Assembly (NCBI GenBank): GCA_034667725.1
Contig: JAXDQS010000003.1
Location: forward strand, 602,171-666,170
DNA length: 64,000 nt
Origin: Thermoplasmata archaeon
GTDB lineage: Archaea > Thermoplasmatota > E2 > JACPAO01 > JAHFTW01
Direction of reading: 5' to 3'
The notes below the pieces were generated by a model. It had not been told where the DNA came from, ran no database searches, and saw only the letters and a list, made by a program, of their open reading frames with translations. Below are positions 37,559-61,492 of this stretch, piece after piece; position 1 is the first letter of the stretch, and each line of letters begins with the position of its first letter. The position numbers and the translations under genes are program-made.

Positions 37559-39154
37559 CTACGCCACCGACGGGTCGCGGTCGTCCGAGGCCGGCAGGCT
37601 GCGGCCGCGCAAGGGGGCGAACACGGGGTTCCGCAGCTCGCGCTGGCACACGGCGGGCGCCTCGGCGCTGGCCGCCTCGCACCACAGCCACGCCTCCTCC
37701 AGGTCGCCGAGGCGGACGCACGCCTCGGACAGGAGCATGGCGGTGGCGGCGCGGTCCTGCGGCGACCCGAGCCGGGACTGGACGGACGACAGGCAGCGCA
37801 GCACCTCGTTCCAGCGCTCCATCGAGTGGAACGCGAGGCCCTGCATGAGGCGGTGGTCGAGGATGTGGGGCCCGAGGCGTTGCCCGTGGATGGCGAGGCG
37901 CAGCGAGGCGCGGTGCCAGCCGAGGTCGTGGCAGCGGCGGGCCATCGCCCAGTAGCCCATGGCGCGCCGTTCGCGGCGGTTCTCAGGCTTGTGCAGGCCC
38001 AAGAAGCCGCGGCCGGACTGGAGCTGGCGGTAGTACCACGGCGGGAACATCCAGGCGCCGATCCCGAAGCCGAGCAGCAGGATGGCGCCGGCCAGGAGGG
38101 CGGCCAGCAGCAGGTCAGGCTGGGCGGGCAGGGCGGTGGGCGCGGTGGGCGCGTCGACCAAGGCTTCGCGGCCGTCGGCGAACACGGAGGGGATGGCGCC
38201 GCCGAGGTGGGCGCGCAGCCGGTGGCCGGGCTGCTTGGCGACGGTGAAGTCGAGGGCGCCGGAGACGACCAGGGTGTCCGCGCCGATGGGCTGGGGTGCG
38301 CCGATGCCGCGCAGCTCGCCGGCCGCCTCCGTCAGGGTGACGCTGCCCTGGGTGGCGTAGGCGGCGTCCGGGTCGATGTAGAGGCTGGCGCCGCGCAACG
38401 GCGCAGGCCAGGTGAGGGTGCCGTTGCGGACCAGGAGGAACGCCTCGGTGCGCTGGATGACGACAGGGAAGCTCATCCCGGTGGGGTCCGAGGCGCTGGG
38501 GTGCTGCCCGGTGCGCAGCTCGGCCGTTTCGGTCGCGTTGGCGACGCGGGCCGTGATGTCCCACAGGGTGAGCAGGAAGTCGCCGTGGACGGTCACGAGG
38601 GCGCTGCCGTCGCAGTCGGTCCACGCCACCGCGGTCTCCGCGCCGACGCGGAACGGGGGCCGCTCGGAGGTCACCACCCTTGGCAAGCGCTCGACCATGT
38701 CCTCGTCGGCGGGAGCAAGGCCGAAGCAGGCCCCGGCGGCCGCCACGCGCGGGCCGTCGCCGCCGGCCAAGGCGAACACCATGGAGCGGTGGTCCTTGCC
38801 GTTGGACAGCCCATCGACGGCCACGTCCTGGTAGAAGGCGGGGGGCGGGCCTGGGTCCTGCGGGGCGCCGGCGTTCGCGGTGCCGGCGTTCTCGGTGTCC
38901 AGCTGCACCTCGATGGCGTTGGCCTCCAGGTGGAACCCTGGCGCCGGCCGGCGCCCTTCGAAGCCGTTGGCCTCCAGGAGGAACGCGCGCAGGCCGCCTT
39001 CGAGCGTGTTGGTGCCCACCGCCTTGGCGCTGGCGGCGCCCAGGTCGAGGCTGGGCACCGCCGCGGCGGGGACGGCCAGCAGGACCAAGGCGAGCAGCAG
39101 GACGGCAGGCTTGGCGCCGCGGGGCACGTTGCTGGCGGATGCGTTGCCCGCCAT
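37559..39154 (-). CDS. Single-pass membrane protein with extracellular domain and cytoplasmic TPR-like tail
   Basis: Signal peptide, beta-rich body, TM LLLAALLAGAILLLGFGIGAW, helical repeats; start uncertain (39127-39169). Confidence 0.65.
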   Translation of the reverse strand: MAGNASASNVPRGAKPAVLLLALVLLAVPAAAVPSLDLGAASAKAVGTNTLEGGLRAFLLEANGFEGRRPAPGFHLEANAIEVQLDTENAGTANAGAPQDPGPPPAFYQDVAVDGLSNGKDHRSMVFALAGGDGPRVAAAGACFGLAPADEDMVERLPRVVTSERPPFRVGAETAVAWTDCDGSALVTVHGDFLLTLWDITARVANATETAELRTGQHPSASDPTGMSFPVVIQRTEAFLLVRNGTLTWPAPLRGASLYIDPDAAYATQGSVTLTEAAGELRGIGAPQPIGADTLVVSGALDFTVAKQPGHRLRAHLGGAIPSVFADGREALVDAPTAPTALPAQPDLLLAALLAGAILLLGFGIGAWMFPPWYYRQLQSGRGFLGLHKPENRRERRAMGYWAMARRCHDLGWHRASLRLAIHGQRLGPHILDHRLMQGLAFHSMERWNEVLRCLSSVQSRLGSPQDRAATAMLLSEACVRLGDLEEAWLWCEAASAEAPAVCQRELRNPVFAPLRGRSLPASDDRDPSVA

Positions 39155-39282
39155 GAACGTATTTGCCATAGTCGGGAACGCTCCGAGGGTCCCCAGGCGG
39201 CCCAGGTTCCTTACTCTATTGGATAATGCTGGCCAATGCGCCAAGGACTGGGCACAAGGATCGGGCCAGGAAACTGGGTCCG

Positions 39283-46488: not shown

Positions 46489-47610
46489 CTAGGCCTGCAC
46501 CGCGATCTGCGGCACGGCCACCGGCGGCGCGTCCATCGTCATGATGCGGCGCACGGCCTGGGTGGTGGTGAGCAGGGTCTCCTTGCCGCGGCGGACCTTC
46601 TCCAGCACGCCGACGCCGACCAGCTTCTTGACGTGGAAGCTCGCAAGCGCGGGGCTGATGCCGAGGCCCTCGGCCATGGCCTTCTGGGAGGTCATGGGGT
46701 GGCTGGCGACCCATTGGGTGATCTGGTGGGCGGAGTCGCTGCGGACGGCGCTGGCGACCTGCATGTCCTGGCTGCTGACCTTGCCGCCGTCCTCGAAGTA
46801 GCACTTCTGGTTGTTGACGCGGCGAGTGGTGACCAGCTTGCCCTTCTCCAGCTTCTCCAGGTGGTGGGTGATGGTGCCCCAGCCGGCGCCGACCTTGCGG
46901 CTCAGTTCGCTGGCGTGGACGCCGGGGTTGGACTGGATGACCTGGAAGACCTGGGCCCGCATGGGGTGGTCCAGAAGCTCGGTGTCCTGGATGCGGCTGA
47001 AGCCGGCCACGGGGGCGGCGAGCCAGGCGAAGCGGCGCACCAGGGTCCAGAGGCCCCAGCCGGCGGTGGCGGCGCCGACCGCGGTGCCGGTGGCGGCGAG
47101 GGCGGTGAACGCGGGCGCGGGCATCTGGCGGGGGCGGAGGCCGAGGACGAAGCCGGAGTAGAGCGAGGCAAGGGCGCCCAGCTGCGCGGCCAGCCAGAGC
47201 GCGGTCGCGGCCAGGAGGTCCGCGGCGGCGTGGCTGCTGAAGCCAAGGAGGCCGCCCATGGCGGCGGCGCCGTCGAGGCCGAGGCGGGCGGCGCCCAGGG
47301 TCACGGCGGACAGGCCGTCCGCGACGGCGAGGCCGGCGGCACCCATGCCGGCGGCGGCGCCGAGCACCATCTGCTGGAGGAAGCGGCCGACGCCGCCGAC
47401 GGTGTCGCCGAGGCCGGGGCCCTTGCCGCCGACGACCTGGTCGACGGGGCCGGCGGCGCCGTCGAGGCCGCCGGTGACGTCGTCCACCAGCTGGTTGCCG
47501 GTCTGGACGGTGTCGTTGGCGAGCTCCTCGGCGGACTGCGTCGGCTGGCCCGCGGCGACGGCGGACAGCAGGAGGGCAGCGAGCGCCAAGGAGGCGGCCA
47601 GGGTTCGCAT
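46489..47610 (-). CDS. Membrane-anchored double winged-helix transcription regulator
   Basis: Signal peptide, Gly/Ala-rich hydrophobic region, FSRI...LDHPMR...NPGVHASEL...HHLEKLE, second HTH. Confidence 0.8.
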   Translation of the reverse strand: MRTLAASLALAALLLSAVAAGQPTQSAEELANDTVQTGNQLVDDVTGGLDGAAGPVDQVVGGKGPGLGDTVGGVGRFLQQMVLGAAAGMGAAGLAVADGLSAVTLGAARLGLDGAAAMGGLLGFSSHAAADLLAATALWLAAQLGALASLYSGFVLGLRPRQMPAPAFTALAATGTAVGAATAGWGLWTLVRRFAWLAAPVAGFSRIQDTELLDHPMRAQVFQVIQSNPGVHASELSRKVGAGWGTITHHLEKLEKGKLVTTRRVNNQKCYFEDGGKVSSQDMQVASAVRSDSAHQITQWVASHPMTSQKAMAEGLGISPALASFHVKKLVGVGVLEKVRRGKETLLTTTQAVRRIMTMDAPPVAVPQIAVQA

Positions 47611-54804: not shown

Positions 54805-56322
54805 GTGGTCGCCCTCAGCCTCGCCGAGCGCCGCCTCATGCTGGCCCTCCCGGAGGACGGCGCCGCGGTGGCCGCCGCCAGCCTGGTGCCGCGGCCGTTC
54901 GCGAGCGAGACCGAGGCGTTGCAGGCCACCGGCGCCCCCGAGCGCCACGGCCTGGTGCGCCTGGAGGAGGCCACCGACACGCTGCACTCCCTGACCGCCG
55001 AGGGGCTCGACCACCAGCAGGCCGGCCTGCCCGAGCGGCGCGCCGCCGAGGCGCTGCACGCCGCGGGCGGCCGCCTGCCGATGGCGGAGCTGCCCGCCAA
55101 GGCCGGCCTCAAGCCGGCCGAGGTGCCGGTGGCGCTCGGCTGGCTCAAGCGCAAGGGGTGGGCGACGTTGGAGAAGGGGACGGTCGCGCTCACGGCGGGC
55201 CGCCCGGCCGCCGGCGTCGACGAGGAGGTCCTGCTGGGCCTGTCGGCCATCCCCCAAAGCGGCCGCGAGCCGAACGCGGTGGCGCAGCTTGCCGCGCGCG
55301 GCATCGTCACGGAGACCGTGCGGACCCGCCGCAGCATCGCGCTCACGCCCGAAGGGCGGCGCGTGCGCGCGGGCATCCCGGCGGACGAGGCGGACGCCAC
55401 CGAGGTCAGCCAGGTGACGCCGGAGCTGGTGGCACGCTGGGCCGCGATGGGCCGCGACGAGCGCGCCCGCACCCGGCTGCGGCCGTTCGAGTTCGACCTG
55501 GCGGTGGCGCCCCAGCATCCCGGCAAGGCGCATCCGCTGACGCACATCCTGACCGAGATTCGCGGCATCTTCTGGAGCATGGGCTTCGCGGAGATCGCCG
55601 GCGACTACGTCGAGTCCGCCCATTGGAACATGGACGCGCTGTTCATCCCGCAGGACCACCCGGCGCGCGAGATGCAGGACACCTTCTACCTGGAGACGCC
55701 GGCGGCGATGCCGGTGTCGAAGTGGGAGCTGGACCGCGCCGAGTCCGTCCACGTCCAAGGCGGCGGCACCGGCAGCACGGGCTGGGGCGGCAAGTTCGAC
55801 CGCGCCGTCAGCCAGCGCGCGCTCTTGCGGACGCACACCACCAACACGACGATCCGCTACCTCGCGCAGGCGTTCAACCGTCCCGAGCCCAAGCCGGTCC
55901 ACAAGGTGTTCGGCCTCGGCCGCGTGTTCCGCAAGGAGACCATGGACGCCACCCACCTGCCCGAGTTCACCCAGATCGAGGGCATCGTGGTCGAGCCGGG
56001 CGCGACCTTCAACACCCTCATCGGATTGTGCAAGCACTTCTTCGCCCAGATGGGCTTCCCCGAGGTCCGGTTCCGTCCCGCCTACTTCCCGTACACCGAG
56101 CCGAGCATGGAGATTGAGGTGTTCTACAACGGCCGCTGGATGGAGCTGGGCGGCTGCGGCGTGTTCCGCCCCGAGGTCACCCACCCCATCGGCGTCCGGG
56201 ACAACGTGCTGGCCTGGGGCTTCGGGCTGGAGCGGCTGGCGATGATGCGGCTGGGCCTGAAGGACATCCGGGACCTCTACGTCTCGGACCTCCAGTGGCT
56301 GCGCGAGACGCCAGTGCGCTGA
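54805..56322 (+). CDS. pheS: Phenylalanine--tRNA ligase alpha subunit
   Basis: WNMDALFIPQDHPAREMQDTFY, LRTHTT, FRPAYFPYTEPS, AWGFGLERL. Confidence 0.96.
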   Translation: MVALSLAERRLMLALPEDGAAVAAASLVPRPFASETEALQATGAPERHGLVRLEEATDTLHSLTAEGLDHQQAGLPERRAAEALHAAGGRLPMAELPAKAGLKPAEVPVALGWLKRKGWATLEKGTVALTAGRPAAGVDEEVLLGLSAIPQSGREPNAVAQLAARGIVTETVRTRRSIALTPEGRRVRAGIPADEADATEVSQVTPELVARWAAMGRDERARTRLRPFEFDLAVAPQHPGKAHPLTHILTEIRGIFWSMGFAEIAGDYVESAHWNMDALFIPQDHPAREMQDTFYLETPAAMPVSKWELDRAESVHVQGGGTGSTGWGGKFDRAVSQRALLRTHTTNTTIRYLAQAFNRPEPKPVHKVFGLGRVFRKETMDATHLPEFTQIEGIVVEPGATFNTLIGLCKHFFAQMGFPEVRFRPAYFPYTEPSMEIEVFYNGRWMELGGCGVFRPEVTHPIGVRDNVLAWGFGLERLAMMRLGLKDIRDLYVSDLQWLRETPVR

Positions 56323-56366
56323 CGGGCCGACCGACCTTTCAAATCCGGCGCACGGCTCGGCGCGAT

Positions 56367-57104
56367 GTGCCAAGGGAGTCCAAGGCGGCCCGCCGCGACC
56401 GCCTCCTGGCCATCGACGACGCGCTCCGGGCCGCCTACCCGCGCTCGACCTGCGCCCTCGACCACCGCACCCCGTTCCAGCTCCTCGTGGCCACCGTCCT
56501 CTCCGCCCAGACGACCGACCTCGCCGTCAACAAGGCGACCCGGACGCTGTTCGCCAAGTGGCCAACACCCCAGAAGCTCGCGCAGGCCGACGTCGACGCG
56601 GTGGGACGGACCATCGACTCCATCGGCCTATGGCGGGCGAAGTCGCGGAACCTCGTGGCGCTCTCCCAGCAACTGGTGGACCGCTTCGCCGGCGAGCTGC
56701 CGCGCACCGTGGCGGAGCTGACGGAGCTGCCAGGCGTCGGCCGCAAGACCGCGACCGCCGTGCTGGGCACCGCGTTCGGGATCCCTGCCGGCGTCACGGT
56801 GGACACCCACATGCTGCGCATCCACGCCCTGCTGGGCACGAGCCGCCAGGCGGATCCTGCCAAGATGGCGGCGGAGCTCGAGGGGCTGCTGCCACCGGAG
56901 CGGTGGGCGGGGCACACGCACCGCGTCATCGACCACGGCCGCCTGGTGTGCGTCGCGCGCCGGCCGCGCTGCGGCGTCTGCCCCGTGGCGGGCCTGTGCC
57001 CGTCGGCGTTCTCCCCGAAGGCGGGCTACAAGCCGGCCCACGACGCCAAGGAGCCGGCGAGCGCCGCGGGACTGAGTTGGCTGCGGCTGGAGGCGGCGCG
57101 ATGA
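56367..57104 (+). CDS. nth: Endonuclease III
   Basis: LLVATVLSAQTTD, LPGVGRKTA, VDTH, C-x6-C-x2-C-x5-C. Confidence 0.93.
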   Translation: MPRESKAARRDRLLAIDDALRAAYPRSTCALDHRTPFQLLVATVLSAQTTDLAVNKATRTLFAKWPTPQKLAQADVDAVGRTIDSIGLWRAKSRNLVALSQQLVDRFAGELPRTVAELTELPGVGRKTATAVLGTAFGIPAGVTVDTHMLRIHALLGTSRQADPAKMAAELEGLLPPERWAGHTHRVIDHGRLVCVARRPRCGVCPVAGLCPSAFSPKAGYKPAHDAKEPASAAGLSWLRLEAAR

Positions 57105-57568
57105 CGAACCCGGTCGTCCGCCCGTGCCATCCGGCGGAGCGGGGCGACGTCGTCCGGCTCTTGGAGGAAGCGGGGCTGCCGCTCGACGGCCTCGACGCGG
57201 CGCAGGACCTGTGGGTCGCGACCGTGCTGGGGCGGGTGGTCGGCGCCGTCGGCTTCGAGCGGCACGGCCGCGTCGGCCTGCTGCGGAGCCTGGTCGTGGC
57301 CGACGACTGCCGCGGCATGGGCATCGGCGGCCGGCTCTTGGAGCGCGGGGTGCGCTCGATGCGGGGCGCCGGCCTGACGGACGCCTACGGCCTCACCACC
57401 ACGATCCCCGCCCTGCTGGCCAAGAAAGGGTGGACCGAGCTGCGGCGCGACCAGGCCCCGGCGGCGCTGGCAGCGTCCGCGGAATCGCAGGGCGCGTGCC
57501 CGGCCTCGGCCCGGCTGTTCCACCTGCATCTTGCCGCAATCCGTGCATCCGACGAGGGGACACGCTGA
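57101..57568 (+). CDS. GNAT acetyltransferase (ArsN2-like)
   Basis: LLEEAGLP, GLLRSLVV, RGMGIG, LTTT, CPASA. Confidence 0.8.
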   Translation: MTNPVVRPCHPAERGDVVRLLEEAGLPLDGLDAAQDLWVATVLGRVVGAVGFERHGRVGLLRSLVVADDCRGMGIGGRLLERGVRSMRGAGLTDAYGLTTTIPALLAKKGWTELRRDQAPAALAASAESQGACPASARLFHLHLAAIRASDEGTR

Positions 57569-57649
57569 CGATCGGCCCGTTGGGGCCTAATCTCATTATC
57601 GCCGCGTGCATGGGAGCGGATTCCGACCCGCATGGGTCAAGTGAACCGC

Positions 57650-57856
57650 ATGAACCCCACCACGTTGGCCATCCTGACGATGGCGCTCGCCACGATGATG
57701 ATGACCCCGGCCGCTGCCGCCGAGGACGCCCAGGTCTTCCTGTCCGCCACCGGCTGCGTGCCGCTGGAGACCGACACCACCAGGATGCCTCCGACCGCGC
57801 GCGTGACCCCCGAGTGCATCAAGGAGAAGACCGATCTTCTGGTCCCAGACCTCTAA
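57650..57856 (+). CDS. Small secreted two-Cys peptide
   Basis: Signal peptide ending PAAAA; Cys pair in mature part. Confidence 0.65.
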   Translation: MNPTTLAILTMALATMMMTPAAAAEDAQVFLSATGCVPLETDTTRMPPTARVTPECIKEKTDLLVPDL

Positions 57857-57880
57857 GAGGCCCCACGCCTTCGGGCGCTC

Positions 57881-59221
57881 GTGCCCCGCCTGGGAGCGGC
57901 CGCTGCCGCCCTTCTCCTTCTCCTGCCTTTTGCCCTGCCGCTGGCCGCCGCGGCCGAGGCCCCCGTGGTCCGGACGGTGCAGGTCGCGGGCACGGCCGCC
58001 GTCGAGGCTGTCCCCCAGTTGCTTGACGCGCGCGCCGGCCCCGGCCCCAACGCCAGGCTCGAGATGTCCGCGCGCCGCTGGACCGTGGTCGCCGTCGAGC
58101 GCGCCACCATGAACGTCGCCGACTTGTGGCGCAACGACGAAAGCGACCCCCGCACCACCGCCAGCACCTGGGAGGGCGACTTGGAGGCCGTGCCCTGGAT
58201 GGACGGCGCCCGGCTGTTCGTCACCGCCCTGCCCGGCGGCGCGTCGCTCGCGGGCTCGTTCCAGTCCGCCCACGTCGGGCCGCCCGAGTCCGCCTGCATG
58301 GCCCGCCCCAGCCACTTCCTCGGGCACGATCCAGGCCCCTGCGTGCCGCTGGGCCCGACCCACGTCGTCGAAAGCCTCGACGAGGTCCTGTCCCTCCGCT
58401 GGACCGGCCCCGTGCGCGTCCAGCTCTGGGGCTGGAACGTCACCGGCGAGGCGGGCGCTTCCTGGAGCGGCGCGGCTCAGCGGCCTTGGCAGCCGGGCGT
58501 CCCCGCCTACGACGAGACGGTGCGCGTCGTGACCCTGATGGCCGACCAGGCCGAGCTCCGCTTCACCCTCCCCGGCCACGACACCAGCATGGCCTGGCTC
58601 GCGTCGGACTGGGACGTCACCGGCACCATCGTCGTGGAGGACGCCTTGGCGGGCACGGTCACGCAGCTCACCGGCGACCACGCCATGGCCTTCGGCGCCC
58701 GCGACGGCGACGCGCTGCCGCTTGCCTTCGCCGCCCCGGCGCGGCCGCCGGACGGCCTGGCCGCCTCCGGCTGGACGGGGCTCGGCGCCACCGTGCTCGT
58801 GCTGCTGGGCACCCTCGCCGCCGCCCTTGCGGCCTGGCGCCGGAGCCGCCCGCGCACCGACCTGGAGGACCTCCTGGACGCGCCCGACCCGGCCACCGCC
58901 GCCGCCCGCGCCGGCCACAGCCCGCGGGCCGGCAAGCAGGCGACCATCCTGCGCACCATCGCCTTCATCCGCTCCCGCCAGCCCGACGCCGCCGAGGCGG
59001 TGCTGCAGGCCCAGCAGGGCGCCGACCCGCTCGACACCGCGGACCACGCCTTCCTGCTGGCCTGCATCCGGGCGCTGCAAGGGCGCGCGCAGGAGGCCGC
59101 CGCCGCCGTCCGGGCCTGCCTGGCCGCCTCGCCGAGCTACGCCGTCGAGGTGCGCGGCACGCCCATCCTGCGCGGCCTCATGGAGGCCGGCGCGCCCGGC
59201 GACGCGGAGGGCTACGCATGA
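57881..59221 (+). CDS. Single-pass membrane protein with extracellular domain and cytoplasmic TPR-like tail
   Basis: Signal peptide, beta-rich body, TM followed by RRSRPR, FLLACIRALQG..QEA...CLAASP. Confidence 0.7.
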   Translation: MPRLGAAAAALLLLLPFALPLAAAAEAPVVRTVQVAGTAAVEAVPQLLDARAGPGPNARLEMSARRWTVVAVERATMNVADLWRNDESDPRTTASTWEGDLEAVPWMDGARLFVTALPGGASLAGSFQSAHVGPPESACMARPSHFLGHDPGPCVPLGPTHVVESLDEVLSLRWTGPVRVQLWGWNVTGEAGASWSGAAQRPWQPGVPAYDETVRVVTLMADQAELRFTLPGHDTSMAWLASDWDVTGTIVVEDALAGTVTQLTGDHAMAFGARDGDALPLAFAAPARPPDGLAASGWTGLGATVLVLLGTLAAALAAWRRSRPRTDLEDLLDAPDPATAAARAGHSPRAGKQATILRTIAFIRSRQPDAAEAVLQAQQGADPLDTADHAFLLACIRALQGRAQEAAAAVRACLAASPSYAVEVRGTPILRGLMEAGAPGDAEGYA

Positions 59222-59718
59222 TGTTCTTCATCCGCGGCCCCAACCGGCTGTCCGAGGGCACGCGCCAGGCCATCGCGCGCGCCTTGGGCGAGCATCCCGG
59301 CGCCACCGAGAAGGAGCTGGTGGACGCCACGGGGCTGGCGCGGGGCTCGGTCGCGCACCACCTGCGCCGCATGGCGGCCCAGTCCGGCGTGCGCGTGGTG
59401 CGCCGCGGCCGCGCCGCCTACTACTTCCTGCCCACGGTGGGCACCTCGTACCAGCACCTCATGCGCCTGGTGCGCGACGACCACTGCGCCGCCATCCTGC
59501 GCACCCTCGAGCTGAAGCCGCGCACCGGCATCCAGGACCTCAGCAGCGAGCTGTCGCTGTCGCGCAAGATCGTGCGCCGCTACCTGACCGAGCTGGTGGA
59601 CTTCGGCCTGGTGTCCCGGAGCGCCGACTACCGGCCGCGCTTCGAGCTGACCCGCGAGACCACGGCGTCGCTGCGGGAGGTCCTGCGCGACGACGACAAG
59701 GGCCTCACAAGGCCGTGA
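59218..59718 (+). CDS. Soluble double winged-helix transcription regulator
   Basis: HPGATEKEL..TGLARGSVAHHLRRM; second HTH DLSSELSLSRKIVRRYL; ATGA overlap. Confidence 0.8.
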   Translation: MMFFIRGPNRLSEGTRQAIARALGEHPGATEKELVDATGLARGSVAHHLRRMAAQSGVRVVRRGRAAYYFLPTVGTSYQHLMRLVRDDHCAAILRTLELKPRTGIQDLSSELSLSRKIVRRYLTELVDFGLVSRSADYRPRFELTRETTASLREVLRDDDKGLTRP

Positions 59719-60340
59719 TGTCGAAGCGGTCCACGACCTCGTCGGCGGCGCGGACCTCCAGCCACTGGTGCGGGCCGTGGGCGTAGGTGCGGAACCAGAC
59801 GGGCCGCAGCCGGGCGGGGGCGGGCGCGTCGCCGTGCTCCTGCACGACGTCGCTCCAATGGACCCGGTACGAGGCGCCGCCCGTGCGCAGCGACAGGTCG
59901 AGGCCGACGTACTCCCCGAGCGCCAGCGTGCCCAGCAGCCCGTTCTTGCCGTGCAGCGGCAGCGGGCTCAACGGCTCCAGCGCGCCCATGAGGTCGGCCG
60001 GGGCCTCGGCGGCCAGTGTCGGCGGGAGGCGGAACACGTCGCTCTCGCCGTGGGCGCCCGCCAGCACGACGATCTCCGGCGGCCGCGACTCGGGGTGGAA
60101 CTCGGCGACCCACGCCCCCTCGTCCGGCGGCAGGGCCTGCTCGACGAAGCTGCCGGTGGGCAAGAGCGCGAAGCGGCGGCGGTGGCCGGCGGCCTCCACT
60201 TGAAGGTCCACGCGGCGGCGCCGGCCGCGGCGGACGGTGAGGCCCGAGCCCCGCTCGCCTGTGAGGACGTAGCCCGCGGAGCCTTGGCCTGCGCCGCGGC
60301 GCACCAGATGCTCGTACGCGACCCGCAGGTTTTGCTCCAT
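59705..60340 (-). CDS. Hypothetical protein
   Basis: Coding-like ORF only. Confidence 0.5.
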   Translation of the reverse strand: MEQNLRVAYEHLVRRGAGQGSAGYVLTGERGSGLTVRRGRRRRVDLQVEAAGHRRRFALLPTGSFVEQALPPDEGAWVAEFHPESRPPEIVVLAGAHGESDVFRLPPTLAAEAPADLMGALEPLSPLPLHGKNGLLGTLALGEYVGLDLSLRTGGASYRVHWSDVVQEHGDAPAPARLRPVWFRTYAHGPHQWLEVRAADEVVDRFDITAL

Positions 60341-60484
60341 CACCCGTTCACCAAAAGCATCCCCGGCGGCGCTCGGCGCGCCCATCGCGCGATGGCCCCC
60401 GATGGGTCATGTTCTCTTTGGGCGCCGGCGGGACAAAGGGGCGCGAGGGGCAGGCTTAAGGCGAGCCGCCGGAGGTGCGCGAAC

Positions 60485-61492
60485 GTGGCGGCGCCGCTGG
60501 AGTGGGACACCCGGGAACTCCTGGGCGCCTCGTTCGCGTGCCTGGAGGGCTGCGGCTTCTGCTGCACCTTCCCGCCCGAGGTCGCCCACGACGAGCTGGC
60601 CCGGCTGCGCACCCGGTTCCCGCGGCTGCCGGTGGCTCGGCAAGACGGCGGCGGCCTCCGCCTGGCGCTCCAGGGCGGCTGCGGCGGCTGCACGCTGTTG
60701 GCGCGGCGGCGCTGCACCGCCTACGAGGAGCGGCCACGGCACTGCCGCTACTTCCCGTTCCATCTCTACTTCGGCCGCCGCACCGAAGTCTACGTCAACC
60801 GCACCTGCCGCGGCGTCGAGGCCGGCCAGGCCGCCGGCGACCTGTCGGGCGCGTTCGCCGCCCAGGTCCTCGGCGTCGCGCGGCCGCACGAGTGGCAGGA
60901 GGCCGAGCGCCAGGCGCGCCGGGTCCACGCCCGCTTCAGGCAGGAGGCCGAGGCGGCGGGGGCGTGGGGCGACGTGGACGCCGCCACCCGCCGCATCCTG
61001 GCCGACCCGGGCGCGGCCCAGGCGTCGTGGAGCCAGCCGGCGGCGGCCGCCGACGCCTGGGCGCCGTTCGCCGAGGAGGAGGTGCTGGCGCGGCCGTTCC
61101 ACCTCACGGCCGACCTGCGCTGGCTCACCTTCGCCGCCGACGGCGACCAGTTGCAAGTGCTGGAGATGCAGGAGACCGGCGAGCTGGCCCCGGGCGCGCG
61201 GCTCGCGTTGGCGCCCAACCAGGCCGGCGACGACGCGCTCGTGCTGCCCGAGCTGCGCCGGCTGGCGGGCCGCGACCTCTGGGCCGGCACCGTGTTCGAC
61301 GTCGTGGACGCGGCCGGCTACGCCGTCGGCGTCGAGGCGGCGGCCGCGGTGCGGGTGGCCGCCCAAGGCGCCGACCTGCGGCTGCGGCTCCGGGTGCTGC
61401 GCGCCCTCGGCCTGCCGGTGGACGCGGCCGAGCTGGCCCGGTTCGCCGACTCGGCGGCGCTCGACACGCCCACCATCGGGGGGTGGCTCTAG
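60485..61492 (+). CDS. YkgJ-family cysteine cluster protein
   Basis: FACLEGCGFCC, CTLL..RRCTAYEERP.HCRYFPF. Confidence 0.82.
   Translation: MAAPLEWDTRELLGASFACLEGCGFCCTFPPEVAHDELARLRTRFPRLPVARQDGGGLRLALQGGCGGCTLLARRRCTAYEERPRHCRYFPFHLYFGRRTEVYVNRTCRGVEAGQAAGDLSGAFAAQVLGVARPHEWQEAERQARRVHARFRQEAEAAGAWGDVDAATRRILADPGAAQASWSQPAAAADAWAPFAEEEVLARPFHLTADLRWLTFAADGDQLQVLEMQETGELAPGARLALAPNQAGDDALVLPELRRLAGRDLWAGTVFDVVDAAGYAVGVEAAAAVRVAAQGADLRLRLRVLRALGLPVDAAELARFADSAALDTPTIGGWL

Follow-up and report, generated by a model that had tools for sequence, protein, structure and literature searches.

Beyond two-component systems and a small number of fused membrane regulators, little is known about how archaea pass signals across the membrane. 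Several described systems link a membrane or a secreted product to a transcription factor. The RRNPP receptors (Rap, NprR, PlcR, and PrgX) are cytoplasmic, and their long arrays of tetratricopeptide repeats (TPR), tandem helix-turn-helix units of approximately 34 residues that form a scaffold for protein and peptide binding, bind a re-imported peptide. In these receptors, the array is fused to an HTH or phosphatase domain, and an Opp-type transporter carries the peptide back in. RseB-RseA-sigma E is a pair of an anti-sigma and an extracytoplasmic function (ECF) sigma factor with a periplasmic modulator. In Bacillus subtilis, the secreted protein SdpC makes the membrane protein SdpI sequester the ArsR-type winged-helix autorepressor SdpR at the membrane (PMC2910880). 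In transmembrane transcription regulators, such as ToxR/ToxS, TcpP/TcpH, CadC, and the archaeal ArnR, one protein carries both a transmembrane (TM) region and a DNA-binding domain (PMC10269533). In this study, we analyzed a cassette of three genes (A, B, and C) at positions 57650-59718 (+) of a 64,000-nucleotide stretch of the genome of a Thermoplasmata archaeon (assembly GCA_034667725.1, contig JAXDQS010000003.1). This whole stretch is called the window, and positions refer to it unless another contig is named. Gene A encodes a small secreted protein with a Cys loop, gene B a membrane receptor with a TPR tail, and gene C a protein with two winged helix-turn-helix (wHTH) domains. With slightly better than even chances, the cassette is a split transmembrane transcription regulator, that is, a three-protein signaling unit that works without a kinase. 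No description of such a cassette was found in the literature on HVO_0163 and on membrane-tethered archaeal factors.

The three co-oriented and coupled open reading frames (ORFs) were confirmed in the window. The GC content of the region is approximately 73%, so that long spurious ORFs are plentiful, and homology backs precisely the three frames that had been named in an earlier sequence-only reading of this DNA. Gene A (57650-57856, +) was assigned from its translation and from relatives that have Cys-loop proteins at the same position. Gene B (57881-59221, +) starts with GTG 24 nt after the stop of gene A and encodes a type-I single-pass receptor of 446 aa, as supported by an AlphaFold2 (AF2) model and by the TPR fold and profile of its tail. 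Gene C (59218-59718, +) encodes a soluble double wHTH regulator of 166 aa, as supported by Pfam matches. The stop of gene B and the start of gene C overlap in ATGA (59218-59221, +), and a GGAGGG ribosome-binding site (59206-59211, +) is located within the last codons of the receptor (EGYA), 6 nt before the ATG of gene C. The sequence-only reading had described three tightly packed genes: a 68-aa signal-peptide protein with one Cys pair, a receptor with a signal peptide, a beta-rich ectodomain, one TM helix, and a TPR-like tail, and a double wHTH protein overlapping the receptor stop. All of these parts were found as described. The order of the genes, their translational coupling, the folds of their domains, the size of the family, and its pattern of conservation are direct observations.

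We determined the architecture of the receptor. It consists of a signal peptide (57881-57955, +), an ectodomain (57956-58774, +), a TM helix (58775-58846, +), and a TPR tail (58859-59188, +), with EGYA at the C-terminus. The AF2 model had a mean pLDDT of 86.9 with an alignment of 136 sequences, compared to 59 with ten relatives. It showed a signal helix at residues 2-18, long beta strands at 29-283, a TM helix at 301-322, and eight tail helices at 327-436. In a fold search, the tail (model residues 325-438) aligned to three-repeat TPR domains (Hop, CHIP, SGT, and designed CTPR) with a Z of about 12 and a root-mean-square deviation of 2.5-3.1 Å over 108-112 residues, and the best 50 matches were all TPR proteins. 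A Z of 12 is by itself not decisive for helical repeats. The receptor family profile also matched consensus TPR proteins at positions 365-454, with E values from 4.7e-17 to 1.5e-9. Pfam gave a sub-threshold TPR_16 match with the single sequence (E 0.013), and TPR_19/TPR_14 matches at 5e-5 in two of ten receptor relatives. Because the profile match of 4.7e-17 adds to the fold match, the tail is called a TPR domain, which is short and membrane-anchored. A carboxylate clamp, by which the TPR domain would grip its own C-terminus, was considered and dropped, as the family consensus has no conserved Lys/Asn clamp residues.

Gene B as a whole had no Pfam or NCBIfam family over threshold. Fold searches with the whole model were filled by the TPR tail, and the beta-rich Foldseek matches (aerolysin-type toxins, flavivirus E, and secretins) had TM-scores below 0.1. 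The ectodomain contains a Cys pair, C139/C154 (58295-58342, residues 139-154), which is spaced by 13-15 residues in the subfamily of the window's receptor and is confined to that subfamily. The loci L002 and L012, which share the pair, have no small gene upstream. The pair was compared with the Cys-loop motif of the gene A proteins and showed no resemblance to it.

The gene order was conserved in relatives. In a first search, receptor relatives were found in 11 of 41 related genomes. A homolog of gene C was located directly downstream on the same strand at all 11 of these loci and at a paralog on another contig of this genome. The junction GGAGG-N6-[AGT]TGA was present in eight of the 11 loci compared, and a ninth (L003) had GAGGG before ATGA; therefore, the translational coupling of the receptor and wHTH genes is conserved. 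At most loci of the first search, a signal-peptide Cys-loop gene lay directly upstream, often overlapping the receptor start or within 4 nt of it. Independent gene calls on metagenome contigs gave an upstream gene (64-66 or approximately 190 aa), the receptor, and the wHTH gene in that order, with the upstream gene in five of five places and the wHTH gene in all four that reach far enough. The three-gene order, for which the sequence-only reading had suggested a synteny search, thus recurs in both relatives and metagenome contigs.

A fresh set of 40 further loci was picked by receptor match alone. In 24 of the 40, the receptor gene was followed by a co-oriented double wHTH gene at a distance of no more than 100 nt, which corresponds to 24 of 35 tail-bearing receptors compared to none of five tail-less ones. 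For the upstream protein, an objective test was used that required a hydrophobic stretch, a terminal C-x(9-28)-C with Pro, and a last Cys at most 12 residues from the end. It was passed by 19 of 94 adjacent upstream ORFs compared to 14 of 2434 other ORFs of the same loci. A secreted Cys-loop protein was directly upstream in about half of the fresh loci, and in a few extra ones it was recognized by eye only. Some tail-less receptor homologs also have a Cys-loop gene beside them (L129 by the objective test; L126 and L143 by eye only), and the gene is therefore tied to the ectodomain rather than to the output. On contig 10 of this genome, an exosortase/archaeosortase-family gene (174567-175469, corresponding to L104:2668-3570; PF09721, E 2e-11) is divergent beside a paralogous three-gene cassette, and no sorting signal was seen on the proteins of that cassette.

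We examined the breadth of the receptor family. Among 1.84 billion cluster representatives, the receptor profile had 2599 matches at E<=0.001, of which 238 reached E<=1e-30. Word-index homology searches with the receptor and with the 136-sequence alignment returned essentially self only, and a search for related loci with the receptor sequence alone found nothing. In an even sample of 401 Thermoplasmatota genomes, the receptor family was present in 23. By group, it was found in 17 of 18 genomes of the window's own family, in the one genome of a sister family, in three of nine genomes of family f15, and in one genome of f33; it was found in none of the other 358 sampled genomes searched. There are approximately eight receptor paralogs per genome, and their ectodomains are divergent, a pattern that resembles that of sensor families. 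A second paralog in the window (37562-39169, -; 536 aa) combines a signal peptide and an ectodomain containing the GDF..W.D motif with a TM helix and a helical tail, whose last residues are PSVA; it has neither an adjacent wHTH gene nor a penultimate Tyr.

Conservation differed among the parts of the cassette. Identity to the ortholog on contig L096 was 47% in the ectodomain, 64% in the TM helix, 89% in the TPR core, and 78% in the wHTH protein. The tail was the most constrained part; across the family as a whole, mean identity was 27% in the tail compared to 19% in the ectodomain. Such a pattern, in which the outer domain changes quickly and the inner one stays fixed, would be expected of a sensor whose output partner is constant.

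The two domains of gene C are located at about 59248-59439 (+) and about 59464-59658 (+). The first domain (residues 15-74) matched PF24266 HTH_HVO_0163_N at 8e-10, with 39 bits compared to a cut-off of 31. HTH_24 matched two stretches of the protein (6e-11), and the second wHTH (residues 83-147) was matched by the HTH_IclR, HTH_5 (ArsR), and MarR models. Gene C is thus a double wHTH of the PF24266 type, defined by an N-terminal domain over the gathering cut-off and a second wHTH. Its 25 best Pfam families are all wHTH. A weak match to the SdpR-subfamily model NF033789 (E 0.0014) was also obtained. In this 2.3-Mb genome there are 36 PF24266 matches, 23 of them over the cut-off, and the PF24266 double wHTH is a large lineage-specific expansion here. 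It is often fused to the C-terminus of membrane proteins or to long membrane-protein frames, and the module therefore appears to be habitually run from the membrane in this genome. One fused form (46492-47610, -) combines a signal peptide, hydrophobic segments, an FSR juxtamembrane motif, and a PF24266-type double wHTH in one polypeptide, and its predicted domains make it a true transmembrane transcription regulator. The cassette resembles a split version of such proteins, with the TPR domain in place of the covalent link. The soluble wHTH partners often start with a short hydrophobic peptide (59218-59240 in the window, and L002, L012, L003, and L006), with the forms MMFFIRG, LLVLFASRG, AVLFGHRG, and PFFFAGW. 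Such a start is reminiscent of the FSR motif that comes after the TM helix in the fused proteins, and the TPR tail could use it for docking.

The gene A product has a hydrophobic signal sequence, a cleavage-like junction (AAAA/ED), and a mature part of approximately 44 aa. The two Cys of the mature part are 19 residues apart, forming a C-x19-C loop that ends in PPxxxVxPEC. An alternative in-frame ATG at 57632 gives 74 aa and may be the true start; it adds MGQVNR, whose one Arg gives a positive n-region. The upstream proteins of relatives likewise have a signal peptide and a terminal loop closed by two Cys, with a consensus of roughly [YW]P-x-C, 6-8 residues, PP, 6-8 residues, P-[ED]-C-[LI]. 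Their length is either approximately 65 aa or 130-200 aa, and the longer ones have an FN3-like body with one or two loops; gene A sequences diverge quickly among loci. We defined the Cys-loop family by three descriptive features, namely a signal peptide, a C-terminal loop of the form C-x(9-28)-C that contains Pro, and a gene position immediately upstream of the receptor gene. The window's gene A product shows all three. A hidden Markov model (HMM) of the loop was built from other genomes only, with this genome left out. Its top two of 23,648 ORFs were the two upstream ORFs of contig 10 (E 2e-5 and 6e-3). Scored alone, gene A reached 6.5 bits on PPxxxVxPEC, and this score was reached by three of 2000 shuffles.

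A TATA-like AT-rich element, TAATCTCATTAT (57588-57599, +), holds the sole run of at least five A/T within 57000-60500. It lies 33-51 nt 5' of the two candidate ATGs of gene A, inside the 81-nt gap before the gene. This is where an archaeal TATA element is expected, and the element is the putative promoter of the cassette. Position, signal peptide, Cys pair, and this promoter-like element all fit, and gene A of the window is probably real. The sequence-only reading had asked whether the small ORF is conserved. A variable secreted Cys-loop gene does recur upstream of receptors, and the window's own copy is a divergent, orphan member of that family; of the three parts, it is the weakest. The single contig with a close ortholog (L096) ends before the position of gene A. 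Residues 32-54 of gene A gave a recurring weak match of 23 residues (52% identity, in 60-aa open frames) in L098-L101 (genomes G021, G324, G013, and G017), which may be a matter of chance in GC-rich DNA.

A kinase-free relay had been proposed by the sequence-only reading. It is the best-supported reading because synteny holds, a variable Cys-loop gene recurs upstream, and a TPR domain forms the tail. Our inferences are the two binding steps, the signal, and the direction in which it regulates. The gene A product would be exported, and its disulfide-closed loop would associate with the beta-rich ectodomain of the receptor, either as a co-receptor subunit or as a self-made ligand. The gene B product would span the membrane once, and its cytoplasmic three-repeat TPR domain would hold the cognate gene C protein at the membrane. 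A change in the ectodomain would alter this hold, and the factor would be freed from its DNA sites or recruited away from them; these sites would probably include the cassette's own promoter. Given the tight coupling of gene A and the long FN3-like variants that it has, a co-receptor subunit is at least as good a fit as a diffusible signal. A bolder version, which we hold to be improbable, is an archaeal system of cell-to-cell or self-sensing, in which each diverging disulfide-hairpin protein would be a private diffusible signal for its own receptor, and the TPR tail with its x-Tyr-x C-terminus would gate a dedicated wHTH factor. If true, it would be a kinase-free, multi-channel analogue of bacterial peptide quorum sensing, undescribed in archaea.

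Several results weigh against a split regulator. The ectodomain had no sequence match in the PDB and no recognized fold or ligand site. In the fresh loci, 11 of 35 tail-bearing receptors were without an adjacent wHTH gene. The absence of a small gene upstream in L002 and L012 concerns the two closest full-length relatives of the receptor. For gene A, the genome-wide search with the loop HMM did not return the window's copy among matches at E<=5, so that the match is weak, and no ortholog was found in 32 genomes of the family. A scan of the promoter region revealed no convincing operator, and the short direct repeats present there (GA[AC]CCGCATG twice) are of doubtful meaning. The operon adjacency of the receptor and wHTH genes is also compatible with a plain autoregulator.

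Since the parts list of the cassette matches that of the Bacillus system (a secreted signal protein, a signal-transducing immunity membrane protein, and an ArsR-type autorepressor; PMC2910880), we considered a toxin/immunity/regulator unit of the SdpC-SdpI-SdpR kind. Gene A would then encode a secreted antimicrobial (archaeocin), which the membrane protein would neutralize; when loaded, the membrane protein would sequester the wHTH autorepressor, leading to more immunity. The rapid sequence variation of gene A and the SdpR-subfamily match of gene C are consistent with this, and the top Foldseek matches of the receptor were aerolysin-type pore formers, yet with the TM-scores below 0.1. We regard such a unit as unlikely. 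No maturation or export genes are located beside the cassette, the frequent FN3-like forms of gene A with 130-200 aa and one or two loops are unlike a bacteriocin, and there are approximately eight receptor paralogs per genome. The receptor has no SdpI-family match, and the coupling of genes A and B suggests a fixed stoichiometry. Those FN3-like domains are typical of surface proteins, and the ectodomain is an elongated beta structure. Both would suit a structural or adhesive surface complex of A and B with a neighboring autoregulator, in which the TPR domain would anchor the complex to partners in the cytoplasm that do not include the wHTH protein, with no signal passing through the membrane. 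Some receptor homologs also keep gene A though they have no tail or wHTH gene, and one paralogous cassette has the archaeosortase-family gene beside it. A surface complex is nevertheless quite unlikely, as the tail is far more conserved than the ectodomain, the wHTH gene is coupled to tail-bearing forms only (24 of 35 versus 0 of 5), and the C-terminal Tyr tracks the presence of the wHTH gene.

This C-terminus was examined in the receptor family, where 84 of 136 receptors have a penultimate Tyr. The codons of the EGY motif are partly the ribosome-binding site of the coupled wHTH gene. The Tyr was retained in L009, in which the ribosome-binding site is absent, and in the variants AYT, VYA, and AYV. 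A penultimate Tyr or Phe was found in 30 of 38 receptors with a coupled wHTH gene compared to four of 12 without, counted among relatives that are not independent. The residue may be part of a handshake with the wHTH factor, or it may reflect the composition of the spacer. The x-Tyr-x C-terminus may also be a likeness to proteasome-docking tails. In that case, the tail would dock on the ring of a proteasome or AAA unfoldase, or an intramembrane cut would occur, and the factor would be freed or destroyed by regulated proteolysis, comparable to the degradation of anti-sigma factors. The number of receptors with the Tyr, its retention in L009, and the fit of AYT, VYA, and AYV to hydrophobic-Tyr-X favor this mechanism, but the commonest form is Gly-Tyr-X and not hydrophobic-Tyr-X. 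Moreover, part of the motif is explained by nucleotide constraints, since it shares nucleotides with the GGAGG site and the spacer of the coupled gene; the motif follows the coupled wHTH gene rather than being general, and the cassette has no protease gene. Regulated proteolysis is thus very unlikely.

Upstream of the cassette, an endonuclease III gene and a GNAT acetyltransferase gene overlap each other and end at 57568. The GNAT neighbor is shared by one of the two loci L002 and L012. Downstream, a convergent gene of 226 aa (59705-60385, -) without any Pfam match shares 14 nt with the end of the wHTH gene, and the ortholog contig L096 has this gene at the corresponding position. No transporter gene was found within 56295-60385, the part of the genome that was searched for one. 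PADLOC defence models gave generic wHTH matches only. The PheRS gene of the window groups with uncultured Thermoplasmatota, and its relatives come from sand, soil, and groundwater.

The cassette is a defined and abundant unit, with thousands of metagenomic relatives, up to approximately eight copies per genome, and three small parts that lend themselves to expression and testing. It brings a new family of receptor ectodomains and a new family of secreted Cys-loop proteins. Fused and split transcription factors run from the membrane can also be compared side by side, as this one genome naturally contains both.

We compared the cassette with the described systems. The sequence-only reading had pointed to the TPR domains of RRNPP quorum sensing. 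A TPR domain, a small exported product encoded beside the receptor, and a transcription output are indeed common to both, but the analogy fails in detail. The TPR domain here is a short, membrane-anchored output domain and not a cytoplasmic peptide receptor; the three-repeat tail of approximately 110 residues stands behind a signal peptide, an ectodomain, and a TM helix, and the HTH is encoded separately. Contact with the exported protein would be made by the ectodomain, and the neighborhood contains no importer. Transmembrane transcription regulators need no phosphorylation to relay a signal from an outer domain to a membrane-located DNA-binding domain, and the cassette would resemble them in this. 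In ToxR/ToxS and TcpP/TcpH, the outer domain of the sensor has a small co-transcribed partner (ToxS and TcpH), a role that gene A may share, and the fused paralogs in this genome (46492-47610) carry the double wHTH type of the cassette. The DNA-binding protein of the cassette, however, is separate and soluble, and a TPR domain stands in its place on the membrane protein. The cassette is thus outside the published definition (PMC10269533), as its receptor has a TM helix but no DNA-binding domain, and its wHTH protein has no TM helix.

Like SdpC/SdpI/SdpR, the cassette comprises three proteins and no kinase, with a membrane protein and a winged-helix regulator in one operon. Unlike the receptor, for which the model shows a single TM helix, SdpI is polytopic (3-12 TM), has no large ectodomain and no TPR domain, and is not homologous to it; a comparison of the receptor with the SdpI family gave no Pfam/NCBIfam match at E up to 1. 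SdpC also differs from gene A, as it depends on SdpAB and its gene is in a separate operon. Gene C has two wHTH domains, unlike SdpR, and the cassette is archaeal and multi-copy. An SdpR-subfamily autorepressor was rejected for gene C (18.5 bits compared to a cut-off of 100), and the general ArsR-like fold alone is shared.

Anti-sigma/ECF pairs are similar in that the helical cytoplasmic domain of a single-pass membrane protein keeps hold of a small factor with two domains, as is proposed here, and in those with a modulator an exported partner acts on the outer domain, as may be the case for gene A. ATGA overlaps are also frequent in them, and many paralogous pairs occur per genome. The topology is inverted, as the cassette receptor has a C-terminal cytoplasmic domain and an N-terminal signal peptide. 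The protein that would be held is a wHTH DNA-binding factor and not a sigma factor, and the holding domain is a TPR domain and not an anti-sigma domain. A sigma-70 family partner (regions 2 and 4) was excluded by the wHTH-only Pfam matches of gene C, and to our knowledge archaea have no sigma factors. Because membership in both families fails on the defining proteins, the relation of the cassette to SdpI/SdpR and to anti-sigma/ECF pairs is a likeness of working and not homology. Sequestration of the factor by the TPR tail, if it occurs, would give archaea an independent equivalent of control by anti-sigma factors or by SdpI-type proteins.

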